Below are positions 1,646 through 62,764 of a DNA stretch of 64,000 bases, piece after piece. Within the stretch, counting starts at the first letter, position 1. The number at the start of each line of letters is the position of its first letter. The notes under the pieces are model-generated. The model saw only the letters and a program-made list of their open reading frames with translations. It made no database searches and had not been told where the DNA came from. Origin of the DNA: Mobula hypostoma (taxonomy: Eukaryota); contig NC_086097.1 of the NCBI RefSeq assembly GCF_963921235.1, forward strand, positions 165,604,001 to 165,668,000, read 5' to 3'. Made by a program: the position numbers and the translations under genes.

Positions 1646-2789
1646 ACAAGAGAAAATCTGCAGATGCTGGAAATCTGAGCAACACACACAAAATGCTGCA
1701 GGAACTCAGCAGGTCAGGCAGCATTTATGGAAAAAAGTACAGCCGACGTTTTAGGCCGAAACTTTTTGGCAGGACTGGAGAAAAAAAAAGCTGAAAGTAG
1801 ATTTGAAAGGTGAGGGGAGGGGAAAGAGAAACACCAGACGATAGGTGAAACTTGGAGGGGGAGGGGTGAAGCAAAGAGCTAGGAAGCTGGTTGGTGAAAG
1901 AGACAGGGGGCCATGGAAGAAAGAAAAAAGGGGGGTGGGGGAGAAACACCAGAGGGAGATGATGGGCAGGCAAGGAGATAATATGAGAGGGACAAGGGAA
2001 TGGGAAATAGTGAAGCGGGGAGGGGAGGGGGTGGGAGAGGAGGCATTACTGGAAGTTTGAGAAATCGATGTTCATGCCAAATGGAATACAAGGTGCTGTT
2101 CCTCCAACCCTCTTGTGGCCTTATCCCGTCAGTGGAGAAGGCCATAGATTGGCATATTGGAATGGGAATGGGAGTGGAATGAAAATGGCTGGCCACTGGG
2201 AGATCCCGCTTGCTCTGGCGGACAGAGTGTAGATGCCTAGCAAAGTTGTCTCCCAATCTACGTCAGGTCTCGCTGATATACAAGAGGCCACACTAGGAGC
2301 ACGGAACACAGTATATGACCCCAACAGACTCACAGGTGAAGTGTCACCTCCCCTGGAAGGACTGTTTGGGGCCCTGAATGGCAGTGAAGGAGAAGGTGTA
2401 GGGGCAGGTGTTGCACTTGTTCCATTTGTAAGAATGAGTGCCAGGAGGGAGATCAGTGGGGAAGGACGAATGGACAAGGGAGTGATCCCTACGGAAAGCA
2501 GAAATGGGGGGGGGGGTGGGAGGAGGAGGGAAAGATGTGTTTGGTGGTGGAATGCAGTTGGTAGTGGCGGAAGTTTTGGAGAATTATGTGCTGGACGTGG
2601 ACGCTGATGGGGTGGTGGGTGAGGACAAGAGGAACCCTATCCCTGGTAGGGTGGCGGTAGGATGGGTTAAGAGCAGACGTGTGAAATGGAAGAGATGCGG
2701 TTGAGGGTAGCATTGATGTGCAGGAAGGGAAACCTTTTCTTTGAAAAAGGAGGACATCTCCTTCATTTTAGAATGAAAAGTCTCATCCC
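1646..2789 (-). mobile_element. 5'-truncated Penelope-like element (degraded RT C-terminus, GIY-YIG region, terminal repeat)
   Basis: Peptides RDRVPLVLTHHP and GDNFARHLHSVRQSKRDLPVASHF; TSD GATTATTCA (1634-1642 / 2790-2798). Confidence 0.85.
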
Positions 2790-3671
2790 GATTATTCATC
2801 TTGTCATATATGACTGTATTCTAAACCAACTGTTATATTCATCTTCAAATTACTAATTGCCTTCCACAAGATCAGGAACATCAAGGATCAAAAGTTAATG
2901 TAAATTCATGTCTTTTTAAAAAATAATTCATATCTATTTATGCAATTCCAAGGCGAGTCCTTGTAATGTCTTTTATGATAAATTTACCTCTTTTCTAAGT
3001 AAATTAAATCTTAATGGAAACTCCTCCCATTTCACTAATGATAGTTACGAGTGTTCTTCTTAATAATACAATGCCAATTAATATGGAAGTACGATCTGAT
3101 GCAGAAAAATTTAAATTTTCTAGTCCTCATTTCAAATGATTACACAAATAGCTTTACCATTACAAACCCATCACTATAAATTTATATTACTTAATCTACT
3201 TTGCAGCAAGATGCTGGTAATCAGAATCATTGTTACCATAAAAATTATAGAATGCTTTGTTCTTAATGAGAAAGGGTAAATTCAAGGTGTGTTGCTTACA
3301 TTGTTTTTCCTACACTAGATAGCATTTTGATTTAGAAGAAGCGCTCATTGCAAACAATTTTGTTGTCTGCATTATCACCAAGGAACGTATCAGTATCAAT
3401 GAAATTAATCCCTAGTTAGAGCAAGGTAACTAAACAACTTACTTGATTAGGTCACCAGTGGACTGAATTAATAAACCAGGAAACAAACTCAAATCACACA
3501 CAATATATGCAGTTGCTGTGTTGAATCATGTTAAACCTAACCAATTCACTTTAGTGGTTTAGGAAAGGAACTTGCTCTGAATTAATGCAGGAGACCAGTA
3601 AATGGTTCAGGGAATTTCCGGATATGTATATACTATACCAGGTAAATTTAGCTACTTAATTTACAGCACAC

Positions 3672-11268: not shown

Positions 11269-12060
11269 TATTTACCCTTCTTGTTTTTTCTTCACTGTTT
11301 TAATGGAGGTCGGGATTGAGGACGTGATTTTAAGTTTAACTCTGTTTGGTTTCAAGTTAGCCCATTGCTTTGCTTTGCTTTTAGTTAGTTGCACGGTGGG
11401 TTTTTTTTTTGGGGTTTTTTTTTCTTTTTTTTTCCATTGATATATATAAAATCTAGTATACTATTATGTTATCTTGGTTTCTTATGCTTAAATTACATTG
11501 TTTGTAGTATTTTCTTTTTGGTATTGTTATCTTTTGGAATTTTATTATACTTTAACATTGTATTAATGTTTATATGGCTTACCTTTTTTGTATACTTACT
11601 CAATAAAAAGATTTAAAAAGAAAGAAAGATTTCTGAATGGACAATAAACCCATGCACACCACCACACTTTCCCCCCTCTTTTTTTTGGTCTCTTATTACA
11701 CTAATTCTTTTTTACACATATTTCTTATTGTAATTTATTGTTTATGTATTGCACTGTACTGCTGTCACAAAACAAAAAATTCCATGACATATGCCAGTGC
11801 TATTAAACCTGATTCTGATTCATGAACACTCTTTCAAAAGACTCTTGAAATCCCAAAAGACATCCCTCATTTTCATTAGACTGCCACTTAAAACCTTTCA
11901 TCAAGCTTTGAGATCATCTGAAAAGGAAGATACAGTGGAGGCGGGGGAGAAAGGAAGAGATCAAATTGATTTCTATCACTCGTCTGTTCACTCTGGGGAA
12001 ATGGATGAAAACAATGGGGATTAGGAAACTACGCAGTCAGATATTAAAATTAAAATTCCT

Positions 12061-12273
12061 GACACAAACAAGAGAAAATCTGCAAATGCTGGAAATCCAA
12101 GCAACACACACAAAATGTGGAGGAACTCAGCAGACCAGGCAGCAGCTATGGAAAAAAGTAGTCGATGTTTCGGGCTGTGACCTGCTGGAGGGTCTTGGCC
12201 TGAAACGTCAACCGTATTTTTTTTCCATAGATACTGCCTGGCTTGCTGAGTTCCTCCAGCATTTTGCGTGTTG
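12061..12273. mobile_element. Short fold-back (inverted) PLE terminal-repeat insertion
   Basis: Two inverted arms of the PLE 3' repeat; 12-bp TSD ATTAAAATTCCT (12049-12060 / 12274-12285). Confidence 0.85.
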
Positions 12274-13424
12274 ATTAAAATTCCTTAGGAATAGGTGGAT
12301 ATAGGGATTGGGAACAGAGTAAAAAGCAAACATTTAGAGGCAATTTTACTTAATGGAAACAGGGTGCCTCATGAGTATCAGCCACTCAAGCTGGTGACTC
12401 ACTACAACCTTGAAGGACAATAGCAGACAAAAAACAAAATGCTGGACTTGCCAGCATGAATTAGTTAAAACAATGAATTAGCAATGCATAATTAGCTATT
12501 GAAAGGTATTGAGAAAAATATCAAAATTGTTGTTTATTGCTCAAACTGACTGAATTATTTTTGTGTTAGCTAAACAAATACACACACTAATTTAAAAAAC
12601 CCATCTTCAGCCTTAAATCCTCATTATCCAACCTACTTCTACATTAGTGCACAGTGGACCAGACTTTTGAAACTTTGTACGCTTATAGCTAGTTAGTTTA
12701 AGCAAAAACTGTTCTTGCCTTATTCTCTTCCAATTCCCCACATAATTTTTGTGGTCACTGAAATTTTGCCTCATCAGATATATACATCTGCATCTGATTA
12801 CTGGCATCTCTTCTCACTGTTCCAGCCCTAACACCTGCCAACAGTTCAGAGGAAACGGATAGAACTCTATTACAGGACATGTCCCACACTGCTGCATACA
12901 GGAAGGATGAAGCATGGCAATTTTCCTATTTGTACTTCCACAGACTGCTGTATTTACAAGGAAAATACCTTAAAAACTTGGGACACTGAATTAACACTAA
13001 ATCCTGAAAGGAAACAGGAGTCAAGGCTAAAGGAAGACACACAAGCCAGGTCAACCTTCGGGTAATCAGTAGGCCATTTAGGAGACGTTTCCACAATGAT
13101 GAATTTGGGACAGTTTGGTGATAATCAAAGAGGTTTGAAGTGTTATAATTTCTTTTAAAATAAAATGAACCTAAATCATCTGGAACATGGAAGGAAGGAA
13201 TTATGAAAGCTTTCTGATGACAATCGGAAACTCAAACTCAGCCCTACAGCATCTCTAAAAAAATAAATAAAATATTAAAAATCTCAAATAGAACAACCAA
13301 TGGAATTCATTGAACAAAACAATGACAGCAAGAAGGAGACAAGTATAGCAAAACAAATGAGGTCACTTCATTCCTTACCTACTAAAGATTCAGAACTTAA
13401 AAAAAAACTTCTTAAAAAACTTAC

Positions 13425-36815: not shown

Positions 36816-36917
36816 CAGTCCTGATGAAGGGTCTCAGCCCAAAGCATTGACTGTTTATTCATTGCCATAGATGCTGCCTGATCTACTGAGTTCCTCCAGC
36901 ATTTTGTGTGTGTTTGC
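36816..36917 (+). mobile_element. 102-bp PLE repeat fragment beginning at the hammerhead motif, ~400 bp upstream of the PPP4R1 ATG
   Basis: 12-bp TSD TATGATTGAAAC (36804-36815 / 36918-36929); the insert begins cagtcCTGATGAagggtctc. Confidence 0.8.
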
Positions 36918-37754
36918 TATGATTGAAACGATTTTAATTGTTTTGGAGATTATATATGATAATTATATAGTCGCCCATCTTTGCCTATCTTAAGAAAATG
37001 AGGCCCCTCCTGGTGATAATACAGTGTTGTTGAGTAGAATAAACCAAAGAAGGCAATAGTAATACTTTAAGGATGACGTTTAGGGATACACAATAGAATA
37101 GGGGTGGAAGTCAAAATGGTTTCCTTAAGGGGAAATCTTGCGTGACAAATTTGTTGGAATTCTTTGAGGAAAAAAAAACATGTATGATAGAAAAGGACAG
37201 TCAGTCGATGCTGTTTACTTGGATTTTTATAGGGCCTGTGATAAGCTGCCACATATGAGGCTGCCAAACAACATTCAAGGGCATGGTATTACAGAAAAGA
37301 TACCAGAATGGATAGAAGACCGGCTGACTGGTAGGAAGTAAAGAATGGGAATAAAGGGCACCTTTTTTTAGTGGTGTTCCGCAAGGGTCAATGTTGGGTC
37401 AGCTACTTTTCATGTTGTATGTTAATAATCTGGATGATGGAATTGATGGCTTTGTTGTCAAATTTGCTGATGATACAAGGACAGGTGGAGGGGCAGGTAG
37501 TGTTGAGGAGGCAGAGGCTACGCAGAAGGACTTAGATTAGAAGAATGGGCAAAGATGGAGTAGCTGGAATACAGTGCCAGGAAGTGTGTGGTCATGCACT
37601 TTTTTAGAAGGAATAAATGCATAGACTATTTTCTAAATGGGGAGAAAATTCAAAAATCAGAGGTGCAAAGGGACTTAGAATCATTGTGCAGAATTCCCTA
37701 AAGGTTAACTTGCTGGTTGAGTCGGTGGTGAGAAAGGCAAATGGAATATTAGCA

Positions 37755-38736
37755 AACAACAGGAATTCTGCAGATGCTGGAAATTCAAGCAACATACATC
37801 AAAGTTGCTGGTGAACGCAGCAGGCCAGGCAGCATCTATAGGAAGAGGCGCAGTCGACGTTTCAGGCCGAGACCCTTCGTCAGGACTAACTGAAGGAAGA
37901 GTGAGTAAGGGATTTGAAAGGGGGAGGGGGAGATGCAAAATGATAGGAGAAGACAGGAGGGGGAGGGATGGAGCCGAGAGCTGGACAGGTGATAGGCAGA
38001 AGGGGATACGAGAGGATCATGGGACAGGAGGTCTGGGAAGAAAGACGGGGGGGGTGACCCAGAGGATGGGCAAGAGGTATATTCAGAGGGACAGAGGGAG
38101 AAAAAGGAGAGTGAGAGAAAGAATGTGTGCATAAAAAAGAGTAACAGATGGGGTACGAGGGGGAGGTGGGGCCTAGCGGAAGTTAGAGAAGTCAATGTTC
38201 ATGCCATCAGGTTGGAGGCTACCCATACGGAATATAAGGTGTTGTTCCTCCAACCTGAGTGTGGCTTCATCTTTACAGTAGAGGAGGCCGTGGATAGACA
38301 TGTCAGAATGGGAATGGGATGTGGAATTAAAATGTGTGGCCACTGGGAGATCCTGCTTTCTCTGGCGGACAGAGCGTAGATGTTCAGCAAAGCGGTCTCC
38401 CAGTCTGCGTCGGGTCTCACCAATATATAAAAGGCCACATCGGGAGCACCGGACGCAGTATATCACCCCAGTCGACTCACAGGTGAAGTGATGCCTCACC
38501 TGGAAGGACTGTTTGGGGCCCTGAATGGTGGTAAGGGAGGAAGTGTAAGGGCATGTGTAACACTTGTTCCGCTTACACGGATAAGTGCCAGGAGGGAGAT
38601 CAGTGGGGAGGGATGGGGGGGACGAATGGACAAGGGAGTTGTGTAGGGAGCGATCCCTGCGGAATGCAGAGAGAGGGGGGGAGGGAAAGATATGCTTAGT
38701 GGTGGGATCCCGTTGGAGGTGGCGGAAGTTACGGAG
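37755..38736 (-). mobile_element. Young 5'-truncated Penelope-like element (probably Neptune clade) with an open GIY-YIG endonuclease region
   Basis: ORF 38173..38757 has a Cys linker CKRNKCYTC and GVIYCVRCSRCGLLYIGETRRRLGDRFAEH..HF..E..LQPDGMN; 16-bp TSD AAATGGAATATTAGCA (37739-37754 / 38737-38752). Confidence 0.93.
37851..37888 (-). ncRNA. Minimal type I hammerhead ribozyme motif in PLE terminal repeat
   Basis: Minus strand reads UAGUC-CUGACGA-AGGGUCUCGGCCU-GAAA-C-GUC|GACUG. Confidence 0.7.
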
Positions 38737-39649
38737 AAATGGAATATTAGCATTCATTTTGAGAGAACTAGAATATAAAAAGCAAGGATGTACTGTAATG
38801 CTGAGGCTTTACAAGTCACTGTTCAGATCACATTTCAAATATTGTGAGCATTTTCAGGCTCCCTTTCTAAGAAAGGATGAGCTAGCATTGGAGAGGGTTG
38901 AGGGGAGGTTTATGAGGATGATTCCAGGAATGGAAAGGTTAACATATGAGGAGCATTTGATGGCTCTGGGCCTGTACTCGCTGTACTTTGGAAGAATGAG
39001 GGGAATCACAGAGAAACCTACCGAATATTGAAAGGCCTAGGTAGAGTGATCATGGAGAAGATGTACAGACTCAGAAAAGCTATCCCTTTAGAACAGAGAT
39101 GAGGAGGCATTTCTTTAGCCAGAGGGTGGTGAATCTGTGGAATTCATTGCCACAGAGAGCTGTGGATATATTTAAATCAGAGGTTGATAGATTCTTGATT
39201 AATAAGGGCATCAGAGGTTACGAGGAGAAGGTAGATAATGGGCTGAGAGGTAAAATAAATCAGCCATGATTGAATGATGGAGCACGCTTGGTGGGCTGAA
39301 TGACCTAATTGTTTCCCTATCTCTTACGGCTTTGTGATCTTATTTCTATATTGAAGCAGTGCATGGCTTCGGGAAGGGAACTTGCATGTATCTGCTTGGA
39401 CCTTTATGTCCTTTTTGTCAGTAATGTTAGATCCTGATGTTTTTGATCCAAGGTTGTTCGGAAGTCAAGAATGAGGTACAAAACTTGTTGCTTACTACAG
39501 TTTATTAAGCATAACAAGAATGAAATGAGGATGAAGGAAAAGATGGCGGGTAGCAAAAGAAAAAGAACCTAATGGTGGGGGGAAGAACAAAAGAGGGTGA
39601 CGGGGAGAGGGAATGCAATTCTAACCACTTTGCCTTTGTAATGGGGGGC

Positions 39650-43530: not shown

Positions 43531-43837
43531 GAATGAGGGGCAACTTCATTATGCAGAGGGTGATACACATACAAACATGCTGTCAGAGGAAATGGTTGAG
43601 CAAAGTATAAGAACATCATTTAAATATAGTTGGAGAGGCACATGGATAGGAAAGTTTTAGGGTGATATGGACCAGACCTGGGCAATCGAATTTAGTTTAG
43701 TTGGGCATCTTGGTCAGCATAGACATGTTGAGCCAAAGAGCCTGTTTCTAATCTGTATTATGACAACAAGAAAAATATTTCTTCAGCTTGAGTTCAAACT
43801 TGTGCTTGAAAAAAAATTCTTGAATTGGCACAAAGTA

Positions 43838-44337
43838 TGAGAGGTGATTGATAAGTTTGTGGCCTAAGGTAGAAGGAGTCAATTTTAGAAAACCTAACTC
43901 ATTTATTTTTCAACATAGTCCCCTCCTACATTTACACACTTAGTCCAGCGGTCGTGGAGCATACGGATCTTGGACCTCCAGAAAGTGTCCACGGCAGGGG
44001 TGATTGATAAGTTTGTGGCCTAATGTAGAAGGAGATGAGTTATACAACTCTCGTTAGATGCACGTGCAGTTCAACTCTTTGAGTGATTATGCAGAAAGTT
44101 TGAAGTTAATAACTCATCTCTGTCTACATTAGGCCACAAAATTATCAATCACCCCTGCTGTGGACTACTTCTGGAGGTCCAAGACGCTGATTTCTACAAA
44201 GAAGGGATCCGTATGTTCCACGACCACTGGACTAAGTGTGTAAATGTAGGAGGGGACTATGTTGAAAAATCAATGTGCTAGGTTTTCTAAAACTGACTCT
44301 TTCTACCTTAGGCCACAAGTTTATCAATCACCCCTCG
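43838..44337. mobile_element. 500-bp mariner-derived palindromic MITE
   Basis: TA on both flanks; TIR gag(a/g)ggtgattgataagtttgtggcctaaggtag; both arms carry the mariner transposase C-terminus (W TKCVNVGGDYVEK). Confidence 0.9.
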
Positions 44338-44602
44338 TAATTCCACCCTTCTTATAACAATCATGAATAAGCTAAATACCTTGCTTCTGTGCTTTAACAA
44401 CTTTGATAAAATGCAGAATACCTGCTGCTTGGTTTCTGACATTACAACAGTGTCTATACTTCAACTTGTACTCTGAAAGGCAGTGAATAAATACAAGAAT
44501 GTTCTTTTCTTTTAACAAAAGAAAACTCATAAAAGCATTAGCAACGCACATCAAAGTTGCTGGTGAATGCAGCAGACCAGGCAGCATCTGTAGGAAGAGG
44601 TG

Positions 44603-44640
44603 CAGTCGACGTTTCAGGCCGAGACCCTTCGTCAGGACTA
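44603..44640 (-). ncRNA. Minimal type I hammerhead ribozyme motif
   Basis: Core CUGACGA...GAAA-C-GUC with stem I UAGUC/GACUG. Confidence 0.7.
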
Positions 44641-45627
44641 ACTGAAGGAAGAGTGAGTAAGGGATTTGAAAGTTGGAGGGGGAGGGGGAGATCCAAAATG
44701 ATAGGAGAAGACAGGAGGGGGAGGGATAGAGCCAAGAGCTGGACAGGTGATAGGCAAAAGGGGATACGAGAGGATCATGGGACAGGAGGTCCGGGAAGAA
44801 AGACAAGGGGGGGAGGACCCAGAGGATGGGCAAGAGGTATATTCAGAGGGACAGAGGGAGAAAAAGGAGAGTGAGAGAAAGAATGTGTGCATAAAAATAA
44901 GCAACAGATGGGATACGAGGGGGAGGTGGGGCCTTAGCGGAAGTTAGAGAAGTCGATGTTCATGCCATCAGGTTGGAGGCTACCCAGACGGAATATAAGG
45001 TGTTGTTCCTCCAACCTGAGTGTGGCTTCATCTTTACAGTAGAGGAGGCCGTGGATAGACATGTCAGAATGGGAATGGGATGTGGAATTAAAATGTGTGG
45101 CCACTGGGAGATCCTGCTTTCTCTGGCGGACAGAGCGTAGATGTTCAGCAAAGCGGTCTCCCAGTCTGCGTCGGGTTTCGCCAATATATAAAAGGCCACA
45201 TCGGGAGCACCGGACGCAGTATATCACCCCAGTCAACTCACAGGTGAAGTGTCGCCTCACCTGGAAGGACTGTTTGGGGCCCTGAATGGGTAGCCTCCAA
45301 CCTGATGGCATGAACATCGACTTCTCTAACTTCCGCTAAGGCCCCACCTCCCCCTCGTACCCCATCTGTTGCTTATTTTTATGCACACATTCTTTCTCTC
45401 ACTCTCCTTTTTCTCCCTCTGTCCCTCTGAATATACCTCTTGCCCATCCTCTGGGTCCCCCCCGCCCTTGTCTTTCTTCCCGGACCTCCTGTCCCATGAT
45501 CCTCTCGTATCCCCTTTTGCCTATCACCTGTCCAGTTCATGGCTCTATCCCGCGCCCTCCTGTCTTTTCCTATCATTTTGGATCTCCCCCTCCCCCTCTC
45601 AAATCCCTTACTCACTCTTCCTTCAGT

Positions 45628-45665
45628 TAGTCCTGATGAAGGGTCTCGGCCTGAAACGTCGACTG
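45628..45665 (+). ncRNA. Minimal type I hammerhead ribozyme motif
   Basis: TAGTC-CTGATGA(45633-45639)-AGGGTCTCGGCCT-GAAA(45653-45656)-C-GTC|GACTG; predicted cleavage after C45660. Confidence 0.72.
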
Positions 45666-48600
45666 CGCCTCTTCCTAGAGATGCTGCCTGGCCTGCTGCG
45701 TTCACCAGCAACTTTGATGTGTGTTGCTTGAATTTCCAGCATCTGCAGAATTCCTGTTGTTTGTTTTTCATAAAAGCATTAAATTGTCATTTTCAGTTTT
45801 AGCAGTTATAGAAATAACAGTGCCTCAAAATTTGAATTAAGTCCCATGTTTGTAGGAAATTCAGGAGTTAAATAGAAACATTAGTTGGAATGCTACCTTG
45901 ACCATACTTTTTTTCCACCCTGCAACCTGCTTGGACTCCATTCCACTATCACAGTTCCTTTGCTTTCCATCACATTTGCTGCAATGATAAGATATTGGCC
46001 CAGGTGCCTCTTCCTTGCCACATAATGGACAAAGCCCTTGGCCATACCTCATCTATTTTGTACACCTCTGTTTTCACCACCTCTCCTCTTGAGCGGAATT
46101 CCCCTAATCCTTGTCTTTTATCCTACTTCCAGCAGATCATCCTTCACAATTTTCAACAGTTCCAATAAGATTCTATATTTCTGTAGATCAGATCTATACT
46201 TCCCTTTCGGCTTTTCAATGAATCTATTGTATTGATGACTCCCTGTTCCGTTTCCAGCAACCATTCCCCATCAAATGAACCTTTCTTATTCAAAACCTCC
46301 TCTTTCACCTTCTACTTTCTCACAAGCTACAGACCCAAACGGTCTTTTCACCTCTGAACTAATTATCACCATCCCCACCAACTAGGCTATGCTCTCTCCT
46401 TGTTACTACCATTGGGCAGGAGGTACAAAACCCTTAGGTCCTATACCACCAGCTTCAGGAACAGTTATTAGCCTACAACCATCAGGCTCACGATCGAGTG
46501 TGGATAACTTCACTCACTTCAACACTGACCTGAATCCACAAGGTGCAGACTGACCTTGAGGCATTCAGCAACTCATATTCTCAGTGTTATTTACTTCTTT
46601 AAATTATTTGCACAATTTGTTTTCTTTTGCATATTGGTTGTTTGTCAGTCTTTGTTATTTACAGTTTTTCATAAATTCTATTGTTTTTTTTAATTTTCCT
46701 GTAAATGCTGCAAGAAAATGACATATCTGTGTTTTGAAAATAAATTAATTTTGACTTTGAAGTGTGTACTGCATTCAGTGTTCACATTTTCTATTTCAAA
46801 GGTGACTCCACCTCAGTCAAGAAGATTTTGGAAGAAATGCTGATCAGGTGGGTAGGAAAGTGGTCAGTGTAGTTCAGAGGTGTTTAAGGTAAAACATTTA
46901 CAAGGGGCAAACTACATGGGGATTCTGCAGGAAAGAAGGAGAAAATTACTTATGTGTACGTAGAGATATAGCAAGTCGAGTATATGCTTGTGACGTTACT
47001 GCAGGTCAGTTTTTCATTGTACCTGTGCATTTACAGTAAGTATTTGTGCATAAAGCAGTAAACCCAACTTGAGAAAGCAGAGAAACAAAACAAAAATACT
47101 GAGCAGGAGCAGGCCTTCTGGCCCATTAATTCTGCATCACCATTCAAATGATCATAACTGATCTGGATACAGGGATCCAAAGTACCTGTGTTTTTGCTCT
47201 ATGGCATTATATCTAGCTTGAACTTGTCATAACCTGCAGTACAATAAAAAGGACGATGGTAACGTGAGCAGGTGCTTTTGTTTCTATTTTGTCCTTACAT
47301 CTTTTCTTTTTTCTCATGAATATTTATACCAAAACATTAACCCATTTTGCTTTAGCAGATAATATTTTGACATTATTTTTCTTGGCATAATTATTTTCAA
47401 TCTTGGTTCAGGGTCCTTGTGCAAGAAACAAAGAAAGTTAGCATGCAGGTATAAAAAAGGCAAATGGAACATTGTCCTTTATTGCAGACACGGCAGAGAG
47501 GATGGAATGTAGAAGTCTCTTAGTCAGTCCCTCTCTCTCTCTCACTCTCACTCTCACTCTCTCACCCCAAGATTGTGAATGTGCAGTAGGTCTATACAAG
47601 TCACACAACATTGTGGGCTGAATGGCCTGTACTGTCTGTATTCAATACAATGCAATATATGGACTCAGTGAGGAAGTGCAGTTGCAGAAGTTCAGCCTTA
47701 TTCTAATGAATAGCAGAGTAGACTTGAAGCTCTGTATCTACTGTTTTCCGAGGCAGCCACATTTTTAGCTTCACATGCATTGCAAGCTTCCTTGGTACTA
47801 AACCCCATCTAGTGGTCCAACACTAGAAGCATAACTGCAATCATAAATGGCTTGCAGTGAGAAGCTTTGCCAAGTATGAGAAAATCTGGCGTAGTTCTTC
47901 TTCAGATGGAGATGCATAATACATTAAATATAATGTTTCAAAATTCTAATCTTTCTAAGAGTTAAACAGACAAGTAACCCTTTTGGCTGGACACAGGAAG
48001 TGCTAAGTGTGTGTAATGTTTCTGATTTAATCAGTTACGCATGGGCTTTCAAATGATTTGAACTGTCTGGGCACCTTTCCAGTTCTGAATGAGTCCTTTG
48101 CAGCAGCACAGGTGTAGGGATGTTTGTACTTGACCCGAGGAAAATTTTCAGCATCTTCTCTTTACATGCTAACTATTGATACAACCTGATGTCATCTACA
48201 TTGAATTCTCCAATCTCCGATAATGTGTCCCCCTCTGTACCTTTGCCCTCTCCTCCTGATCTACCCAGTTCCTCCTACAACCATCATGGCCTCCCCACAT
48301 CACCCTGTTCCTTTTTCCTCCTCCATCTGCCCACAGTCCACACATTCCTCCCACTGGATCCCTTTACCTGACTCTTCTCGTCTATCCTCCCCACCTGCCT
48401 GACTTGATTCTATGCTCTGCCTTCTTTTCCGATAAGATTAAATACCTGAAGCCCTTTTTTGTCTCCACCCATCACCTCCCAGCTTCTGCCGCTATTTCCA
48501 CTCTTCCCACCTCCATCTCCCTATTGCTCCGCCTCACCTGCCCCTCCCTTTCCCCTCACATCTTTACGCTAACTATCTCTCCTCTGTTGATGCAGGGTAT

Positions 48601-50216: not shown

Positions 50217-53200
50217 CATAAGACATAGGAGCAGAATTAGGCCATTCAGCCTATCGAAGCTGCTCTGCCATTCCATCATGGCTGATCACAGATCCCACTC
50301 AACCCCATACACCTGACTTCTCGCCATATCCTTTGATGCTCTGACCAATCAGGAAACTATCAACTTCCACCTTAAATACAGGTTTCCCCTGCCATCCGAA
50401 GGTAGAGCGTTCCTATGAAACAGCTCATAAGCCGAAATGTCGTAAAGCGAAGAAGCAATTACCATTTATTTATATGGAAAAATTCTGTGAGCATTCGCAG
50501 ACCCAAAAATAACCTACCAAGTCATGCTAAATAACACATAAAACCTAAAATTACAGTAACATATAGTAAAAACAGGAATGATATGATAAATACACAACCT
50601 ATATAAAGTAGAAATACTTCTCCACAATCATTACTGCACTGTTCTCCGTAGCGAAAATCTCACGCAAGCGCTGTTGGCAAAAACACGGCGCAAGCGCTCT
50701 CCAGTAACCTTTAAGCTATGAAGCTGCCAAATCATACCAAATAACACGTAAAAATACACAGCCTATATAAAGTAGAAATAATGTATGTACAGTGTAGTAT
50801 CACTTACCGGAATTGGTTCAGCGCTGAGCACACGGATGATGGTGTGTTAGGCTGAGTCGGAGTTTGGGTGGTCCAGTGGCCCCCACCCTCCAGGCCGCCA
50901 AGCGATACATTGCTGTGAAGAACGCAGGGGTCCAGCGGTAGCTGGGAGGCACACAGCACATCTTTAAGAAAAAAGCCGAAATAAACATGCTAATTAATTA
51001 GGTGCCGCCCGGCACATAATTGTCGGCCCAGATCAGTGCCAATTTCCGATTGCATCATCTCTGATCTGGGCCGACAATTATGTGTCAGCGGCGCCTAATT
51101 AATTAGCATGTTTATTTCGGCTTTTTTCTTGAAGATGTGCTGTGTACTTCCTGGCTACCGTTGCATTCTCCATGAATCGATATCTGTCTGTGGCCTGGGG
51201 GTTGGGGTGGTGGGACACCGGGGTGTCATCTCGTCATCGTCTGTTTCCATTAGAGCAGGCAGCTCATCTTCTTCTATCTCTGCCCGCCTCAATGTCGAAG
51301 GTCAAGGTTCGTCGTCTGCTGTGGCTGATGTGGAAGGCTTGCTTGACAGCTGAGCCTCACGCATTTTTCTATCACACAGTTCTTTGTAAGGACTCAAACC
51401 ATCCTGCAAATATCCCCTAAACCGACATACCCTTTCAAAATTAAAGTCGTACTTTATCATTACTGATTCGGTTTCGATTGTTATCCTTTTTTCTTCCAAT
51501 TGCATCAGCTCTTCATCTGTCAGTTCTTGGTCATGGGATGCCAAAACCTCTTCAACATCATGTTCGTCAGCTTCCACAAGCCAAACTCATGTTGTCCTTA
51601 CTTCGTTCACCACGATCAAAACGCTTAATTATGTCTAGTTTTACGCTAAGTGTAACACCCTTACGAGCTCTTTTAGGCTTTTCCGATACCTTAGAACTCA
51701 TCTTGCAAACGGCTGCTCACAGGCATATGTTTAAGCAATGCCGGCGAGAATGCAGTTCTGAATCCGGGGAGAGTGGCTGCTCGGGGGTGCGCTGCCTTTT
51801 ATCGCGCGCTGATTTTTTTTCGTAACAGTGAAAACACCTACTGAAAGTGAAAACAGGGTACTAATGTAGGTCTTTCATAACAGTGAGGTTTCGTAAAGCG
51901 AACGTTTGAAAAGCGGGGGACACCTGTATACCAACAAACTTGGCTTCTACCGCAGTCTGTGGTAGAGCATCCCACAGATTAATTACTCTCTGGCTACAAA
52001 AATTCCTCCGTTCTGAAAGGTTGCCCCTCACTTTTGAGGCTGTGTCCTCCAGTTCTGGTTGCTCCCACCATGGGAAACGTCTTCTCCATATCCACCTTAT
52101 CAATATCCAGTCCTTAAGATCTCCTTGCATTCTTCAAAATTCCAGTGAGTACAGGCCCAAAGCTGCCAAATGCTCCTCATATGTTAATCCCTTCATTCCC
52201 GGAATAATCCTCATGAACCTCCTCTGGACTCTCTCCCAATGACAACATATCCTTTCTGAGCTATGGGGCCCAAAACTGTTGACAATACTCCAAGAGCGGC
52301 CTGACTAATGTCTTATAAAGGCTCAGAATTATCTCCTTGCTTTTATATTCCCCTTGAAATAAACGCTAACATTGAATTTGCTGCCTTTACTACAGACTCA
52401 ACCTGTAAATTAACCTTCTGGGAGTCTTGCATGAGGACTTCTAAGTCCCTCTGCACCTCTGATGTCTGAACCTTCTCCCCATCTAGATAATCGCACTATC
52501 ATACATTTCCGAACACTGGATTCCATCTGCCACTTTTTTTGCCCATTCTAACAATTTGTTTCGACCTTGCTGCAATCGCATTGCTTCCTCAGCACTACTT
52601 GCCCTTCCACCAACCTTGTATCATCCACAAACTTTGCCAAAAGCTATCAATTCCATTAAAAAAACACTGACAAACAATATGAAAAGTAGTGGTCCCAATA
52701 CTGACCCCTGAGGAACATCACTAGTCACTGGCAACCAACCAGAAAAGGTCCCCTTTATTCCCACTCACTGCCTCCTGCCTGTCAGCCATTCCTCTTCCAT
52801 GCCAGTATCTTTCCTGTAACACTATATCTTGTTAAACAGCCTCGTGTGTGGTGCCTTTACAAATGCCTTCTGAAAATCCAAGTAAATGACATCCACTGCC
52901 TTTCCTTTGTCCACCGTACTTGTTACTTTCTTGAAGAACTCTAACAGATTTGTCAGGCAAGATTTCCCTTTACGGAAACCATGCTGATGTTGACTCATTT
53001 TATCATTAGTCTCCATCCTTAATAATAGACTCCAACACTTTCCCAGCCACTGAGGTTAGGCTAACTGGCATATCATTTCCTTTCTTTTGCCTTCTTCCCT
53101 TCTTAAAGAGTGGAGTGACATTTGTAATTTTCCAGTCTCCCGGGACCATGCCAGAATTAAGTGATTCTTAAAATGCATCCGTCAACTCTTCAGCAACCTT

Positions 53201-54811: not shown

Positions 54812-57800
54812 TATTAGGGAAGGTTTGCTAGCGCTGCTCCGGGGTGTTTAAACTAGATTTGCGGGGGAGGGGAACCAGAGTGTTAGAGCAGATAGTGAGG
54901 TGGAGGAGGATAAAGGTCATGCGAGAACTGCAAGTATAGTGCATGGAGTAAAGCCAGATCTAACGTATAAAGAGGCTTTGAGGAAAGAGAAGCAGAATAA
55001 AGGGTGTAAAGGTAGTAAGGTAGAAGGGCTAAAGTGCGTGCACTTCAATGCAAGAAGCATCAAGAACAAAGGTGATGAACTGAGGGCTTGGATACATACA
55101 TGGAATTATGATGTAGTGGCCATTACAGAGACTTGGCTGGCACCAGGGCAGGAATGGATTCTCAATATTCCTGGATTTCAGTGCTTAAAAAGGGATAGAG
55201 AGGGGGGAAAAGGAGAGGAGGGATGGCATTACTGGTCAGGGATACTATTACAGCTACAGAAAGGGTGGGTAATGTAGCAGGATCCTCTTTTGAGTCAGTA
55301 TGGGTAGAAGTCAGGAACAGGAAGGGAGCAGTTACTCTATTGGGAGTATTCTATAGGCCCCCTGGTAGCAGCAGAGATGCCGAGGAGCAGATTAGAAGGC
55401 AGTTTTTGGAAAGGTGCAAAAATAACAGGGTTGTTATCATGGGTGACTTTAATTTCCCTAATACTGATTGGCACCTGATTAGTTCCAATGGTTTAGACGG
55501 GGCAGAGTTTGTTAAGTGTGTCCAGGACAGATTCCTGTCACAATATGTTGACAGGCCGACTAGGAGGAATGCCAGCAACACACATCAAAGTTGCTGATGA
55601 ACGCAGCAGGCCAGGCAGCATCTCTAGGATGAGGTACAGTCAACGTTTCGGGCCGAAACCCTTCGTCAGGACTCGGCCTGAAACGTCGACTGTACCTCAT
55701 CCTAGAGATGCTGCCTGGCCTGCTGCATTCACCAGCAACTTTGATGTGCGTTGCTTGAATTTCCAGCATCTGCAGAGTTCCTCATGTAGGGGGAATGCCA
55801 TACTAGATCTAGTATTAGGAAACGAACCGGGTCAGGTCACAGATCTCTCAGTGGATGAGCATCTGGGGGACAGTGACCACTGCTCCCTGGCCTTTAATAT
55901 TATCGTGGAAAAGGATAGAATCAGAGAGGACAGGAAAATTTTTAATTGGGGAAGGGCAAATTATGAGGCTATAAGGCTAGAACTTGCAGGTGTGAATTGG
56001 GATGATGTTTTTGCAGGGAAATGTACTATGGACATGTGGTCGATGTCTAGGGATCTCTTGCTGGATGTTAGGGATAAATTTGTCACAGTGAGGAAGATAA
56101 AGAGTGGTAGGGTGAAGGAATCATGGGTGACTAGTAAGGTGGAAAATCTAGTCAGGTGGAAGAAGGCAGCATACATGAGGTTTAGGAAGCAAGGATCAGA
56201 TGGGTCTATTGAGGAATATAGGGTAGCAAGAAAGGAGCTTAAGAAGCTGAGAAGAGCAAGAAGGGGGCATGAGAAGGCCTTGGCAAGTAGGGTAAAGGAA
56301 AACCCCAAGGCATTCTTCAATTATGTGAAGAATAAAATGGTGACAGGAGTGAAGGTAGGACCAATTAGAGATAAAGGCGGGAAGATGTGGAGGTTGTGGA
56401 AATGAGTGAGGTCCTCAATGAATACTTCTCTTTGGTATTCACCAATGAGAGGGAACTTGATGAAGGTGAGGACAATATGAGTGAGGTTGATGTTCTGGAG
56501 CATGTTGATATTAAGGGAGAGGAGGTGTTGGAGTTGTTAAAATACATTTGGACAGATAAGTCCCTGGGGCCTGATGGAATATTCCCCAGGCTGCTCCATG
56601 AGACGAGGGAAGAGATTGCTGAGCCTCTGGCTAGGACCTTTATGTCCTCATTGTCCATGAGAATGGTACTGGAGGATTGGAGGGAGGTGAATGTTGTCCC
56701 CCTGTTCACAAAAGGTAGTAGGGATAGTCTGGGTAATTATAGACCTGTGAGCCTTACGTCTGTGGTGGGATAGCTGTTGGAAAAGATTCTTAGAGATAGG
56801 ATCTATGGGCATTTAGAGAATCATGGTCTGATCAGGGACAGTCAGCATGGCTTTGTGAAGGGCAGATCGTGTCTAACAAGCCTGATAGAGTTCTTTGAGG
56901 AGGTGACCAGGCATATTGATGAGGGTAGTGTAGTGGATGTGATCTACATGGATTTTAGTAAGGCATTTGACAAGGTTCCACGCGGTAGGCTTATTCAAAA
57001 AGTCAGAAGGCATGGGATCCTGGGAAGTTTGGCCAGGTGGATTCAGAATTGGCTTGCCTGCAGAAGGCAGAGGGTGGTGGTGGAGGGAGTACATTCAGAT
57101 TGGAGGATTGTGACTAGTGGTGTCCCATAAGGATCGGTTCTGAGACCTCTGCTTTTCGTGATTTTTATTAATGACCTGGATGTGGGGGTAGAAGGGTGGG
57201 TTGGCAAGTTTGCAGACGTAACAAAAGTTGGTGGTGTTGTGGATAGTGTAGAGGATTGTCGAAGATTGCAGAGAGACATTGATAAGATGCAGAAGTGGAC
57301 TGAGAAGTGGCAGAAAGAGTTCAACCCAGAGAAATGTGAGGTGGTACACTTTGGAAGGACAAACTCCAAGGCAGAGTACAAAGTAAATGGTAGGGTACTT
57401 GGTAGTGTGGAGGAGCAGAGGGATCTGGGGGTACATGTCCACAGATCCCTGAAAATTACCTCACAGGTGGATAGGGTAGTTAAGAAAGCTTATGGGGTGT
57501 TAGCTTCCATAAGTCGAGAGATAGAGTTTAAGAGTCACGGGGTAATGATGCAGCTCTATAAAACTCTGGTTAGGCCACACTTGGAGTACTGTGTCCAGTT
57601 CTGGTCGCCTCACTATAGGAAGGATGTGGAGGCATTGGAAAGGGTACAGAAGAGATCTACCATGATGCTGCCTGGTTTAGAGAGTATGGATTATGATCAG
57701 AGATTAAGGGAGCTAGGGCTTTACTATTTGGAGAGAAGGAGGATGAGAGGAGACATGATAGAGGTATACAAGATATTAAGAGGAATAGATAGAGTGGACA

Positions 57801-58110
57801 GCCAGCGCCTCTTCCCCAGGGCACCGCTGCTCAATACAAGAGGACATGGCTTTAAGGTAAGGGGTGGGAAGTTCAAGGGGGATATTAGAGGAAGGTTTTT
57901 TACTCGGAGAGTGGTTGGTGCGTGGAATGCACTGCCTGAGTCAGTGGTGGAGGCAGATACACTGGTGAAATTTAAGAGACTGCTAGACAGGTATATGGAG
58001 GAATTTAAGGTGGGGGAGGGGTTATATGGGAGGTTGGGTTTAAGGGTCGGCACAACATTGTGGGCTGAAGGGTCTGTACTGTGCTGTACTATTCTATGTT
58101 TTATGTTCTA
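54812..58110 (+). mobile_element. Relatively young CR1 LINE with a near-complete but disrupted ORF2
   Basis: EN motifs (HFNARSI, AITETW, FYRPP, GDFNFP, LDLV, SDH) and RT in ORFs 54900-58111; broken by a few stops/frameshifts and a PLE insert; ttctatg tail. Confidence 0.92.
55575..55786. mobile_element. 212-bp palindromic PLE terminal-repeat insertion inside the CR1 endonuclease
   Basis: Near-perfect inverted arms; 14-bp TSD TAGG(A/G)GGAATGCCA (55561-55574 / 55787-55800). Confidence 0.92.
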
Positions 58111-58933
58111 GGAGAATGGGCAAGAAAGTGGCAAATGAAATACAATGTTGGAAAATGCATGGTCATGCACTTAAATGTGCAGACTATTTTCTAAACGGGG
58201 AGAAAATCTAAAAATTGGAGATGCAAATGGACCTAGGAGTCCTTGTGCAGAATACCCCAAAGGTTAACCTGCAGGTTGACTTGGTGGTGAGAAAGGCAAA
58301 TGCAATGTTAGCATTAATTTCAAGAGGTCTAGAATACAAGAGCAGGGATGTGTTGCTGGGGCTTTATAAGGCACTGGTGAGGCCTCACCTTGAGAATTGT
58401 GAACAGTTTCACATTTCAGAAAGGATGTGCTGGCATTGGAGATGGTTCAGAGGAGGTTCACAGGGTTGATTCCGGGAATGAAATGGTTATCATATGAGGA
58501 ATGTTTGATGGCTCTGGGTCTGTACTCACTGGAATTCAGAAGGGTGAGAGGGGAAGGGATCTCACTGAAACCTTATGAATGTTGAAAGGCCTGAACAGAC
58601 TAGATGGGGAAAGGGTGTTTCCCATGATGCGGGAGTCTAGGACAAGAGGGCACAGACTCAGGATTGAGGGGCATCTATTTAAAACAGAGATGTGGAGAAA
58701 TTCCTTTAGCCAGAGGATGATGATTTTGTGGAATTTGTTAACACAGGTATCTATGGAGGCCAGGTCATTGGGTGTATTTAAGGCAGAGTTTGATTGGACA
58801 TGGCATTAAGGTTACGGGGAGAAGGCCGGGGAGGGGGGGCTGAGGTGGGGCTAAAGGATCAGCCATAATTGAATGGCGGGGCAGACTCAATGGACCAAAT
58901 GGCCTAATTCTGCTCCTATATCTTATGGTCTTA
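58111..58933 (+). mobile_element. CR1 3' fragment
   Basis: Peptide LYKALVRPHLENCEQF; tail ctcctatatcttatggtctta. Confidence 0.85.
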
Positions 58934-60805: not shown

Positions 60806-62764
60806 TTTATTTCTTCCTGGTGCTGAAGCAACTTATTGGAGCAGGATGACAATTAGTTTGGTACAGTCTCAGCACAAGTGGACCAGGGAGAAGATATGTT
60901 AGATGGTAGTTTTCATTCTCTAGTGATCTGCAAAATAAGAACAAATGGGAAAAATTGGGATGAAAAAACTGCAGAGGCTGAGAATTTTAAATAAAACCAG
61001 AAAATGCAAGAAATACTCAATGAGTAGGAAGAGAAATTTTAACACCTTAGGTTGAAGTCCCTCTTTGACCTAAAAGATTTGGAAGAAATCAGTATGCTGC
61101 CTGAACTGCTGAGTCATTCCAACATTTCCTGTTTATCTGTTTTTATTTTGAAGAACATCCATGTATGGATATAGATGGAGGCAGGTTCAACTTTACGTTA
61201 TCAATTTACCTATTCCCATCAGCAGTGTAGGATTATGCTTAGATACTAAAAAGTTCACAGACACATTTTCTAAGGTTTCATGTAAATTGTAATTGATATT
61301 TTCCAACATGATCATGAATAAAACCAGTAGGTTAAGGTAGTTCCATACTCCTGGGAACTTGAGCAAAAAGTTTATAAATTCAATAGGAACACACACCTCT
61401 GTTGATACAAATAATGTATCTAGAACCGATCTTCATCTGTAGTTTGCTGAATGTGACTTCTGGCAGAGGTACATATGCCAAGCTATCAGCAAGATGTTCA
61501 CAGAATTGGAAGGGAAACAAATTCTTTAGTGACCTTAAGGAAATGTGTCATTGATAAATCAATGGTTAAATGTAAGAATAAATAGAATTACACTGGGCTC
61601 AAGGAAGTAGATGCAGCCAAGCTATGATGTCAAAATAGATGTTAGAAGGAAAGCAGTCAAGATAGAAACTTCCGCAAAAGTTTCTGGCTCCCTTGCATAG
61701 CATTCCTAAGATATGAGTATGAACAACAAATCTGGTATTTGATGGCCATCATGGAGACCTGGCTGCTTTTCAAGAGACCAAAGAAACTGGGGAAAGGAAA
61801 GTAAAGTAAATGTCAGGATAAGAGAGCTGTCACAGATCAAAGAGATTTCAGTCAACATTCCTGGACAGTGGAAACGCCAAGAATGAAGAACACCAGTCGG
61901 GTCGAAGACAAAGGATGAAGAATCCTTTACCCTTTGCTCTTAGGTCAAAGACCTCTTTGCCCTAAGATAGTCTGAAGAAGCCAGGATACAGCCTGACTTG
62001 TTGAGTATTTCCAGTATTTTCTGTTTTTTTTGATTCTATAGAAAAATATCCATGTGTGAATATAGCTGGGGATACTTTCAGGTCTACATTACCTGCTTAT
62101 CTATTCACAGGTGAACGTAATACTCACTCAATTGGTATACAGCTTCAGGCTCTGGCAGATGCTGCCTGCAGATTTTTTCATTGCAATGATGATGCGGGTG
62201 CATAATGAAGAAAAGTGAGGTTGTGATGGAGATATTCATATTTATGTAGTCTGGAGGAACAAGAACAGCTCAGTAGTAAAGAGTGTGAATGCCTAGATTT
62301 CGTTTAGAAAAGGGATCTACAATACACTTACTGGAACCAACAAATGCACAGGTTGCGTTAGATTTGGTTGGGATTGAGAAGCAAAAGAAGAATTAGAAGC
62401 AAAGCTTTAAGTTTAAGGTGAATTGAATTTGATGAAGAGATTGGGAATGAATTATATCCATTTTCCAGAATCTGCATGTTGTATCGAGGCCAACAAACAT
62501 TGCCATTGTCTAACTCTCCTTAAGAAGGTGTTGATGAGCTGCCTTTTTGATTAAGATAATCTCACAATGATGTGGATAGGCTGTTCATAATTTAGATCTA
62601 GTGAAAATAAAGAACTAGTGATATATTTCCAGATTGAATGGCGTGTGACTTGTAAGGGAACTGCAGGTGGTGATATTTCCTCCTGCCGTGACTGCTGAAG
62701 TGACTACGACAAACAGAACTGGACTTTTTCTCATTTATTTATTTGTGAAAATATGGACAGCACT

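Follow-up and report, generated by a model that had tools for sequence, protein, structure and literature searches.

The 212-bp hairpin at positions 55575-55786 of the window (the whole stretch of 64,000 nucleotides of DNA that was analysed) represents, in its shortest form, the head-to-head insertion known from EN+ Penelope-like elements (PLEs) and is probably a dead-end insertion, assembled anew at each landing from two short head-to-head cDNAs. As an element, the hairpin is of an ordinary, known kind; its worth lies in the statistics, given that, as far as the available texts go, how PLEs make inverted ends and a one-sided tail remains debated. As read from sequence, the parentage, the pairing of one tailed with one tail-less arm, the duplications of 13-14 bp, the diversity of junctions, the microhomology at them, the coupled arm lengths and a sharp 5' stop are all features of these insertions.

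Positions within the PLE end are counted here from the predicted hammerhead cut, with -1 for the final base 5' of the cut and +1 for the first base 3' of it, and an arm is called tailed if its 3' end lies at about +90 or further. A sequence-only reading of this DNA described the locus as a 212-bp hairpin with a 14-bp target-site duplication, and this description is borne out. The sequence forms one long hairpin (-161 kcal/mol, z -21, with 0 of 200 shuffles equal to it), is flanked by plus-strand copies of a 14-bp duplication with one mismatch (55561-55574 and 55787-55800), and occupies a site that is intact, with uninterrupted sequence across it, in three other copies of the host LINE. The host, identified by domain match, is a decayed LINE ORF2 with AP-endonuclease and RT domains (55199-58111, plus strand), which we take to be of the CR1 type. 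The left, tail-less arm (55575-55673, minus strand) is the antisense PLE end from +67 to -32, and -32 is the 5' edge of hammerhead stem I, where the earlier reading had also placed the end of this arm. The right arm is in the sense orientation, from -16 to +99; it comprises a part from -16 to +67 that holds only the 3' half of the hammerhead (55672-55754, plus strand) and the 32-nt PLE tail from +68 to +99 (55755-55786, plus strand), which is present on this arm only, as had been observed. The start at -16 falls in the loop of hairpin II, so that the earlier placement of the start inside stem II is right for the hairpin II region but not for the stem. At the head-to-head junction, the two arms share an exact overlap of 2 nt (55672-55673), and four of five bases pair if the overlap is extended.

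A complete minimal type-I hammerhead motif, consisting of stem I, the CUGACGA core, a bulged A, stem II and GAAAC, was found by eye in the left arm (55638-55673, minus strand) when the sequence was read against the description in the available text of PMC4209133; the cut triplet of this motif has decayed from GUC to GUU. An Rfam search does not detect the hammerhead and yields only sub-threshold miRNA-like matches, which are attributed to the hairpin shape. According to the same part of PMC4209133, metazoan PLE hammerheads have the same core, bulged base before stem II and palindromic helix III stub as found here, and motif pairs 100-700 bp apart on opposite strands are already mentioned there. 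The hairpin differs in that the whole motif is present in the left arm only, and in a transcript of the hairpin this predicted hammerhead would be masked by the opposite arm.

The derivation of the hairpin from a PLE, also proposed in the sequence-only reading, is supported by the match of both arms to the terminal region of an EN+ parent, a unit of ~3.5 kb with RT-like and GIY-YIG domains that is found in tandem and inverted copies. The GIY-YIG domain scores 23 bits, above the Pfam cut-off of 22.6, and RVT_1 is matched under the cut-off (E = 8e-4) in a 566-aa frame that shares the same C-terminus; the order, RT followed by a C-terminal GIY-YIG endonuclease, is that of EN+ PLEs. No intact full ORF of the parent is present among six long copies. 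Other hallmarks of EN+ PLE insertions are found as well, namely the tandem or inverted arrangement of pLTRs with 5' truncation, a one-ended tail in the range of 30-40 bp (32 nt at the hairpin, and one-ended in 107 of 107 duplication-flanked pairs) and a pLTR hammerhead of the minimal kind, the last identified by sequence reading. In the ORF piece at 38173-38808, GIY-YIG is preceded by C-x4-C-x2-C, in keeping with the motif CX2-5CxxC that, in the available text of PMC8557442, is given for Neptune and also for Nematis. Exact motif counts of 60,689, 74,422 and 95,091 put the number of arms at ~10^5 in the 3.48-Gb genome. Several further observations concern long copies and their surroundings. In a parent unit (locus L126), a strong splice-donor-like word lies in the ORF at about -653, ~620 nt upstream of an acceptor-like site. 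Short solo stumps are located in or beside long copies of the same family (L122, 3605-3741, and L125, 5543-5678, oriented coordinates), and each of them ends at -32 by microhomology with the target. At L125 (oriented 1-936), a 312-aa frame that by eye resembles a seven-transmembrane receptor adjoins the PLE cluster.

The window contains several related copies. A long version of the same plan, a 1.2-kb head-to-head copy at 44541-45767 that the sequence-only reading overlooked, has a tail-less arm reaching about -680, a tailed arm reaching about -380 and a 14-bp duplication, and a solo, tailed, 5'-truncated parent copy (37753-38738, minus strand) carries the GIY-YIG end of the ORF. Older families are represented by a hairpin at 12061-12273 with the tail on the left arm and a 12-bp duplication (12049-12060 and 12274-12285), by a solo stump that starts at about -33 (36817-36914, plus strand) and by a longer copy (1646-2791, minus strand). 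The hairpin at 12061-12273 had been listed as a recurrence of the plan, and the plan is indeed the same, but mirrored, in an older family and with a shorter duplication. Two degraded recurrences had been proposed in addition. The one at 60960-61140 is very decayed and could at most be a head-to-head copy of ancient date: both halves score higher against an old arm than any of 300 shuffles, but the match of the halves to each other does not exceed chance (30, with a shuffle maximum of 35). The other, at 61935-62030, turns out to be a single arm with no partner (18, with a shuffle maximum of 30), in sequence that repeats the 61.0-kb stretch in direct orientation. At 61040-61230 and 61910-62110, two copies of ~195 nt in direct orientation, both decayed, include an old PLE-like arm (137, with a shuffle maximum of 43).

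Analysis of arm ends reveals a sharp 5' stop at -31/-32, and this stop is real. The sample consists of 171 young arms selected without regard to the junction, drawn from 100 consecutive anchored arms at the start of contig 1 (its first 4.6 Mb), from stretches at even spacing that total 940 kb, from the window and from additional arms met in flanking sequence; three arms at stretch edges were dropped, a few duplicates remain, and older-family matches ending near -31 were excluded because their upstream sequence differs from the reference. In this sample, 43 arms end at -40..-21, with 18 of these at -35..-31 and the peak at -31/-32, whereas only 2 end at the hammerhead cut and 79 run past -100. 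The per-base stop rate is 0.028 at -35..-31 versus 0.0015 upstream of -80, which upholds the earlier claim that 5' ends cluster upstream of the cut and differs from the even spread of breakpoints named there as grounds for giving up that claim. The ends do not form a single edge and trail off to about -80. Genome-wide, the arms that fail to continue number 6,986 at -32, 4,914 at -33 and 321 at -42; among the 95,091 arms that match -14..-31, those ending at -31 make up about 7%, those ending at -32 are about as frequent, and those ending at -41 amount to about 0.5%, all of these shares being estimates that involve a last-letter correction, the removal by eye of point mutants and other families from 100 listed rows, and estimated denominators. 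The peak near -31/-32 is seen in tailed and in tail-less arms, so that the stop depends on position and not on length. Among the short solo copies with a duplication, 12 of 18 end at -21..-40 (22 of 92 short arms could not be classed), and thus no partner arm is needed for the stop. The 3' ends fall into two groups, at about +57-69 and at about +100-106, and about half of the insertions are cut down to the terminal 100-170 nt. In a single case (L200, about 1480-1520, G000:C2:127.82 Mb), the 3' end of an arm lies exactly at the predicted cut, as if cleaved RNA had been the template.

The composition of the pairs is equally regular. All of the 107 duplication-flanked pairs join one tailed and one tail-less arm; this set is what remains of 131 pairs once the 24 that lack a duplication are set aside, includes two duplication calls that look spurious, and comes mostly from loci picked by their junction. 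Exact duplications of 13-14 bp account for 37 of the 59 found among the 100 anchored arms. In 30 unselected pairs, in which both arms hold the anchor and from which one pair with a spurious duplication and the window's hairpin were left out, the tailed arm extends further 5' in 15 and the tail-less arm in 13, with two ties, and the arm lengths are coupled (16 short-short, 11 long-long and 3 mixed pairs; Spearman 0.66). Filler is present in 14 of 30 junctions; the filler-free ones overlap by at least 2 nt in 11 of 16 cases versus 16% expected by chance, and the commonest junction is located on an imperfect 8-nt palindrome at -31..-24. At five subfamily sites, the arms agree in 70 of 86 short pairs (21% expected) and in 10 of 21 long pairs, with 6 of the 21 differing at two or more sites; given that long pairs often differ, one RNA cannot serve every event. 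Rare variants are common to both arms in 7 of 163 cases, which indicates that the match between arms is set at insertion and not by later conversion. Between the duplication and the stump, four apparent solo stumps (L245, L270, L295 and L013) still carry 6-55 nt of a tail arm, which means that the second arm can be very short. At two loci (L047, 480-575, and L292), the inverted partner consists of an internal fragment beginning at neither start site, which suggests occasional snap-back.

The arm statistics fit priming on two target strands at the start sites seen in vitro in Anolis, followed by annealing of the cDNA ends as in L1 twin priming. The available text of PMC11167929 reports that, in vitro, both strands are nicked, two RT start sites bracket the tail and the protein is a predicted dimer, and that the template requires ORF-start sequence. 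For the insertions analysed here, a protein of this kind, again a predicted dimer, would nick the two target strands 13-14 nt apart. Priming would then take place from one of the resulting 3' ends at the start site of the tail (about +102) and from the other at an inner site (about +60-69), and the two would mostly use a single RNA, or RNAs transcribed from one source copy. In about half of the events, both cDNAs would stop near -31/-32. The two antisense cDNA ends would anneal by microhomologies of 2-4 nt that derive from self-complementary hammerhead sequence, the supply of which would explain why a few junctions recur hundreds of times, and fill-in and ligation would complete the insert.

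The sequence-only reading offered, as one of its two explanations, a discrete palindromic non-autonomous retroelement of ~210 bp that copies itself as a unit in a MITE-like or retrozyme-like manner, and this explanation now appears very improbable, being already largely refuted. The junction 25-mer of the hairpin has 205 exact genomic copies, the commonest hairpin junction has 549, and the best 30 matches to the hairpin are 93-100% identical over about 208 nt, all of which would be compatible with such a unit. However, these 30 loci were selected for likeness to the query, and their near-identity was rejected as a sign of a master for this reason. An unselected pattern search identifies 2,442 hairpins in which each arm ends a short way upstream of the 3' strand of stem II, and the first 50 of these contain, as counted by eye, ~30 junctions, the commonest in 14 of the 50 and the window's in 1-2. 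Sharing of one central junction by many loci, proposed earlier as the mark of a self-propagating unit, is thus found for the window's junction, but the diversity of junctions speaks against the unit. The tail occurs on either side of one junction: in the first 30 genomic copies of the window's junction, its own copy included, it is on the right in 15, on the left in 11, on neither side in 3 and on both in 1, and in the first 30 copies of the commonest junction the respective numbers are 11, 17, 1 and 1. Matching arms are present in 15 of 21 analysable copies of the window's junction; they represent seven haplotypes, and six of the seven are found in long copies as well. Since a master would fix the tail side and mutate one arm at a time, the varied tail side and the symmetric haplotypes argue that there is no master, and the rule of one tailed and one tail-less arm opposes the unit as well. 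In addition, the window's junction is present in older families (L197, L287), the outer ends of hairpins vary from +47 to +113, and an A-to-G editing scar was sought in 86 hairpins and found in none (maximum 3 changes). The origin of the second arm from the first, whereby a single tail-primed cDNA stops, folds back and self-primes, is distinctly unlikely. Self-priming, preferably on an antisense template, is proposed in the available text of PMC3846280, and it would account for the matching arms of short pairs, the palindrome at the commonest junction and the few internal-fragment partners. Nevertheless, a copy cannot outreach its template on the 5' side, yet the tail-less arm is the longer one in 13 of the 30 unselected pairs, extends further 5' in 15 of 30 copies of the window's junction, and does so in the window's hairpin itself (-32 versus -16 in the tailed arm); furthermore, some long pairs consist of arms of different subfamilies. 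The arm geometry refutes self-priming for most loci.

If assembly from two cDNAs is accepted, the cause of the stop at -31/-32 has to be considered separately. Run-off at the 5' end of the RNA, for which the chances may be put at about even, is favoured over pausing at the ribozyme and over a splice acceptor. Because the in vitro template needs ORF-start sequence, RT should be expected to initiate where the 5' pLTR meets the ORF and to run off at a 5' end close by. A fuller version, which can be put forward only tentatively, is that the stumps might be run-off ("strong-stop") cDNAs from the 5' pLTR, that the dimer might prime both strands at two sites of one RNA, and that -32 might be the first base of the transcript. 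At 28-31 nt upstream of -32, 56 of 73 young arms have an AT-rich box, compared with 17 of 39 in other families; an initiator-like word also spans -34..-28, although most of its letters are already required by the ribozyme. At several junctions, a few arm bases are repeated following -31, as a template jump would leave them. The same stretch can also be read as a branch point, a pyrimidine tract and a YAG acceptor (31 of 39 in other families), and in the PLE of D. virilis, according to the available text, an intron of 75 nt ends at helix I and the start site is 46 nt before the intron. A spliced form, with upstream element sequence joined to the acceptor at -34 or -30, is found in none of the loci retrieved, and a splice-acceptor effect is unlikely. 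That RT pauses or lets go at the ribozyme is a somewhat unlikely cause of the stop; its combination with two-cDNA assembly, such that RT pauses or is released as stem I completes, whether stem I forms in RNA, in a dimer or in newly made cDNA, is rather unlikely. The coincidence of the peak with the 5' edge of stem I, in tailed and tail-less arms alike, is what this combination has in its favour. Yet a stall at an RNA stem is expected on the 3' side (+4 or -9), and few ends are located there, with 11 of 171 in -10..+9; the stability of the monomer fold does not exceed that of shuffles (z 0.39); and in the available text of PMC11167929 hammerhead mutants leave the in vitro insertion product unchanged. 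The other explanation in the sequence-only reading, that reverse transcription stalls or switches template at the folded ribozyme, therefore stands as far as the clustering of ends upstream of the cut is concerned but is doubtful as to the cause, since the peak is located at the ribozyme 5' edge, after the whole ribozyme has been copied, and solo copies without fold-back also stop there. Self-cleavage of the hammerhead as the event that sets the 5' ends is extremely improbable: two of the 171 arms start at the cut, and one has its 3' end there (L200), but a large majority of arms contain sequence from upstream of the cut and so derive from uncleaved templates, as in vitro (PMC11167929, available text). 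The end profile of the 171 arms refutes self-cleavage as the main cause.

The EN+ PLE insertion units described in the available texts of PMC8557442, PMC3846280 and PMC2377424 combine an inverted 5'-truncated pLTR with a one-sided tail of 30-40 bp and share with the present insertions the head-to-head truncated copies, the one-ended tail, the flanking duplication, the short junction overlap and the hammerhead in the terminal repeat. The present insertions are set apart by the reduction of about half of them to the terminal 100-170 nt, by the sharp stop and by the strictness of the one-tailed, one-tail-less rule, and neither the stop nor the rule is found in quantified form in the available PLE literature on insertion units. 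Poseidon PAc of Anolis (PMC11167929, available text) is similar in that the tail lies between two start sites, each target strand is nicked and extended, and the RNA template is uncleaved; it belongs to a different clade, the start sites are not assigned to the two target strands in that text, and no 5' stop is reported there. As in L1 twin priming (10.1101/2024.08.27.596794, available text), two target ends prime two cDNAs, microcomplementarity joins them and the lengths are correlated, but twin-primed L1 arms cover mostly different parts of the RNA, whereas the PLE arms here cover the same terminal region, so that strand displacement or two templates would be needed. Non-LTR retrozymes (10.64898/2026.07.22.740005, available text) are likewise short, PLE-derived, hammerhead-bearing and present in a cartilaginous fish, but they form head-to-tail arrays with a consensus of their own, whereas the hairpin is head-to-head with no fixed unit, and the 100 anchored arms comprise head-to-head pairs and solo stumps and yield no head-to-tail monomers with a family consensus. 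A literature search, with subscription journals and Repbase/Dfam entries outside its scope, returned no self-propagating palindromic PLE derivative, and, with figures, some supplements and subscription papers outside its scope, no report of a 5' stop at the hammerhead 5' edge, of twin priming in PLEs or of an assignment of start sites to target strands.

MITEs are short, palindromic, flanked by duplications and numerous, and the hairpin resembles them in these respects. The earlier label "MITE-like" holds for this shape only. The hairpin differs in having no terminal inverted repeats at fixed ends and no fixed length, its ends, junctions and tail side all being variable, as well as in the 13-14-bp duplication and the retroelement origin; instead of descent as a unit from a master, one junction is found on seven symmetric haplotypes. 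Repeat annotation could nonetheless mistake the most frequent junctions for MITE families. The available texts already describe pLTRs that are inverted and truncated, a tail on one side only and hammerhead pairs on opposite strands. What the statistics provide is a set of rules for any mechanism, namely one tailed and one tail-less arm, a stagger of 13-14 bp, coupled lengths, either arm being the longer one, and the stop at -31/-32, which may mark where the PLE RNA begins. If priming of both strands on one RNA and run-off at -32 are true, inverted pLTRs and the one-sided tail would be explained by one mechanism without an antisense template, and thousands of stumps would be a fossil record of PLE integration.

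Two other fold-backs were observed in the window. The sequence at 50933-51163 is a near-perfect fold-back of 231 bp that is unrelated to the PLE arm and has only sub-threshold miRNA-like matches in Rfam. At 43833-44342, a nested fold-back with arms of 137 and 76 nt, a repeated terminal word of 39 nt and TA at the edges presumably represents a DNA-transposon MITE nested in its own kind.
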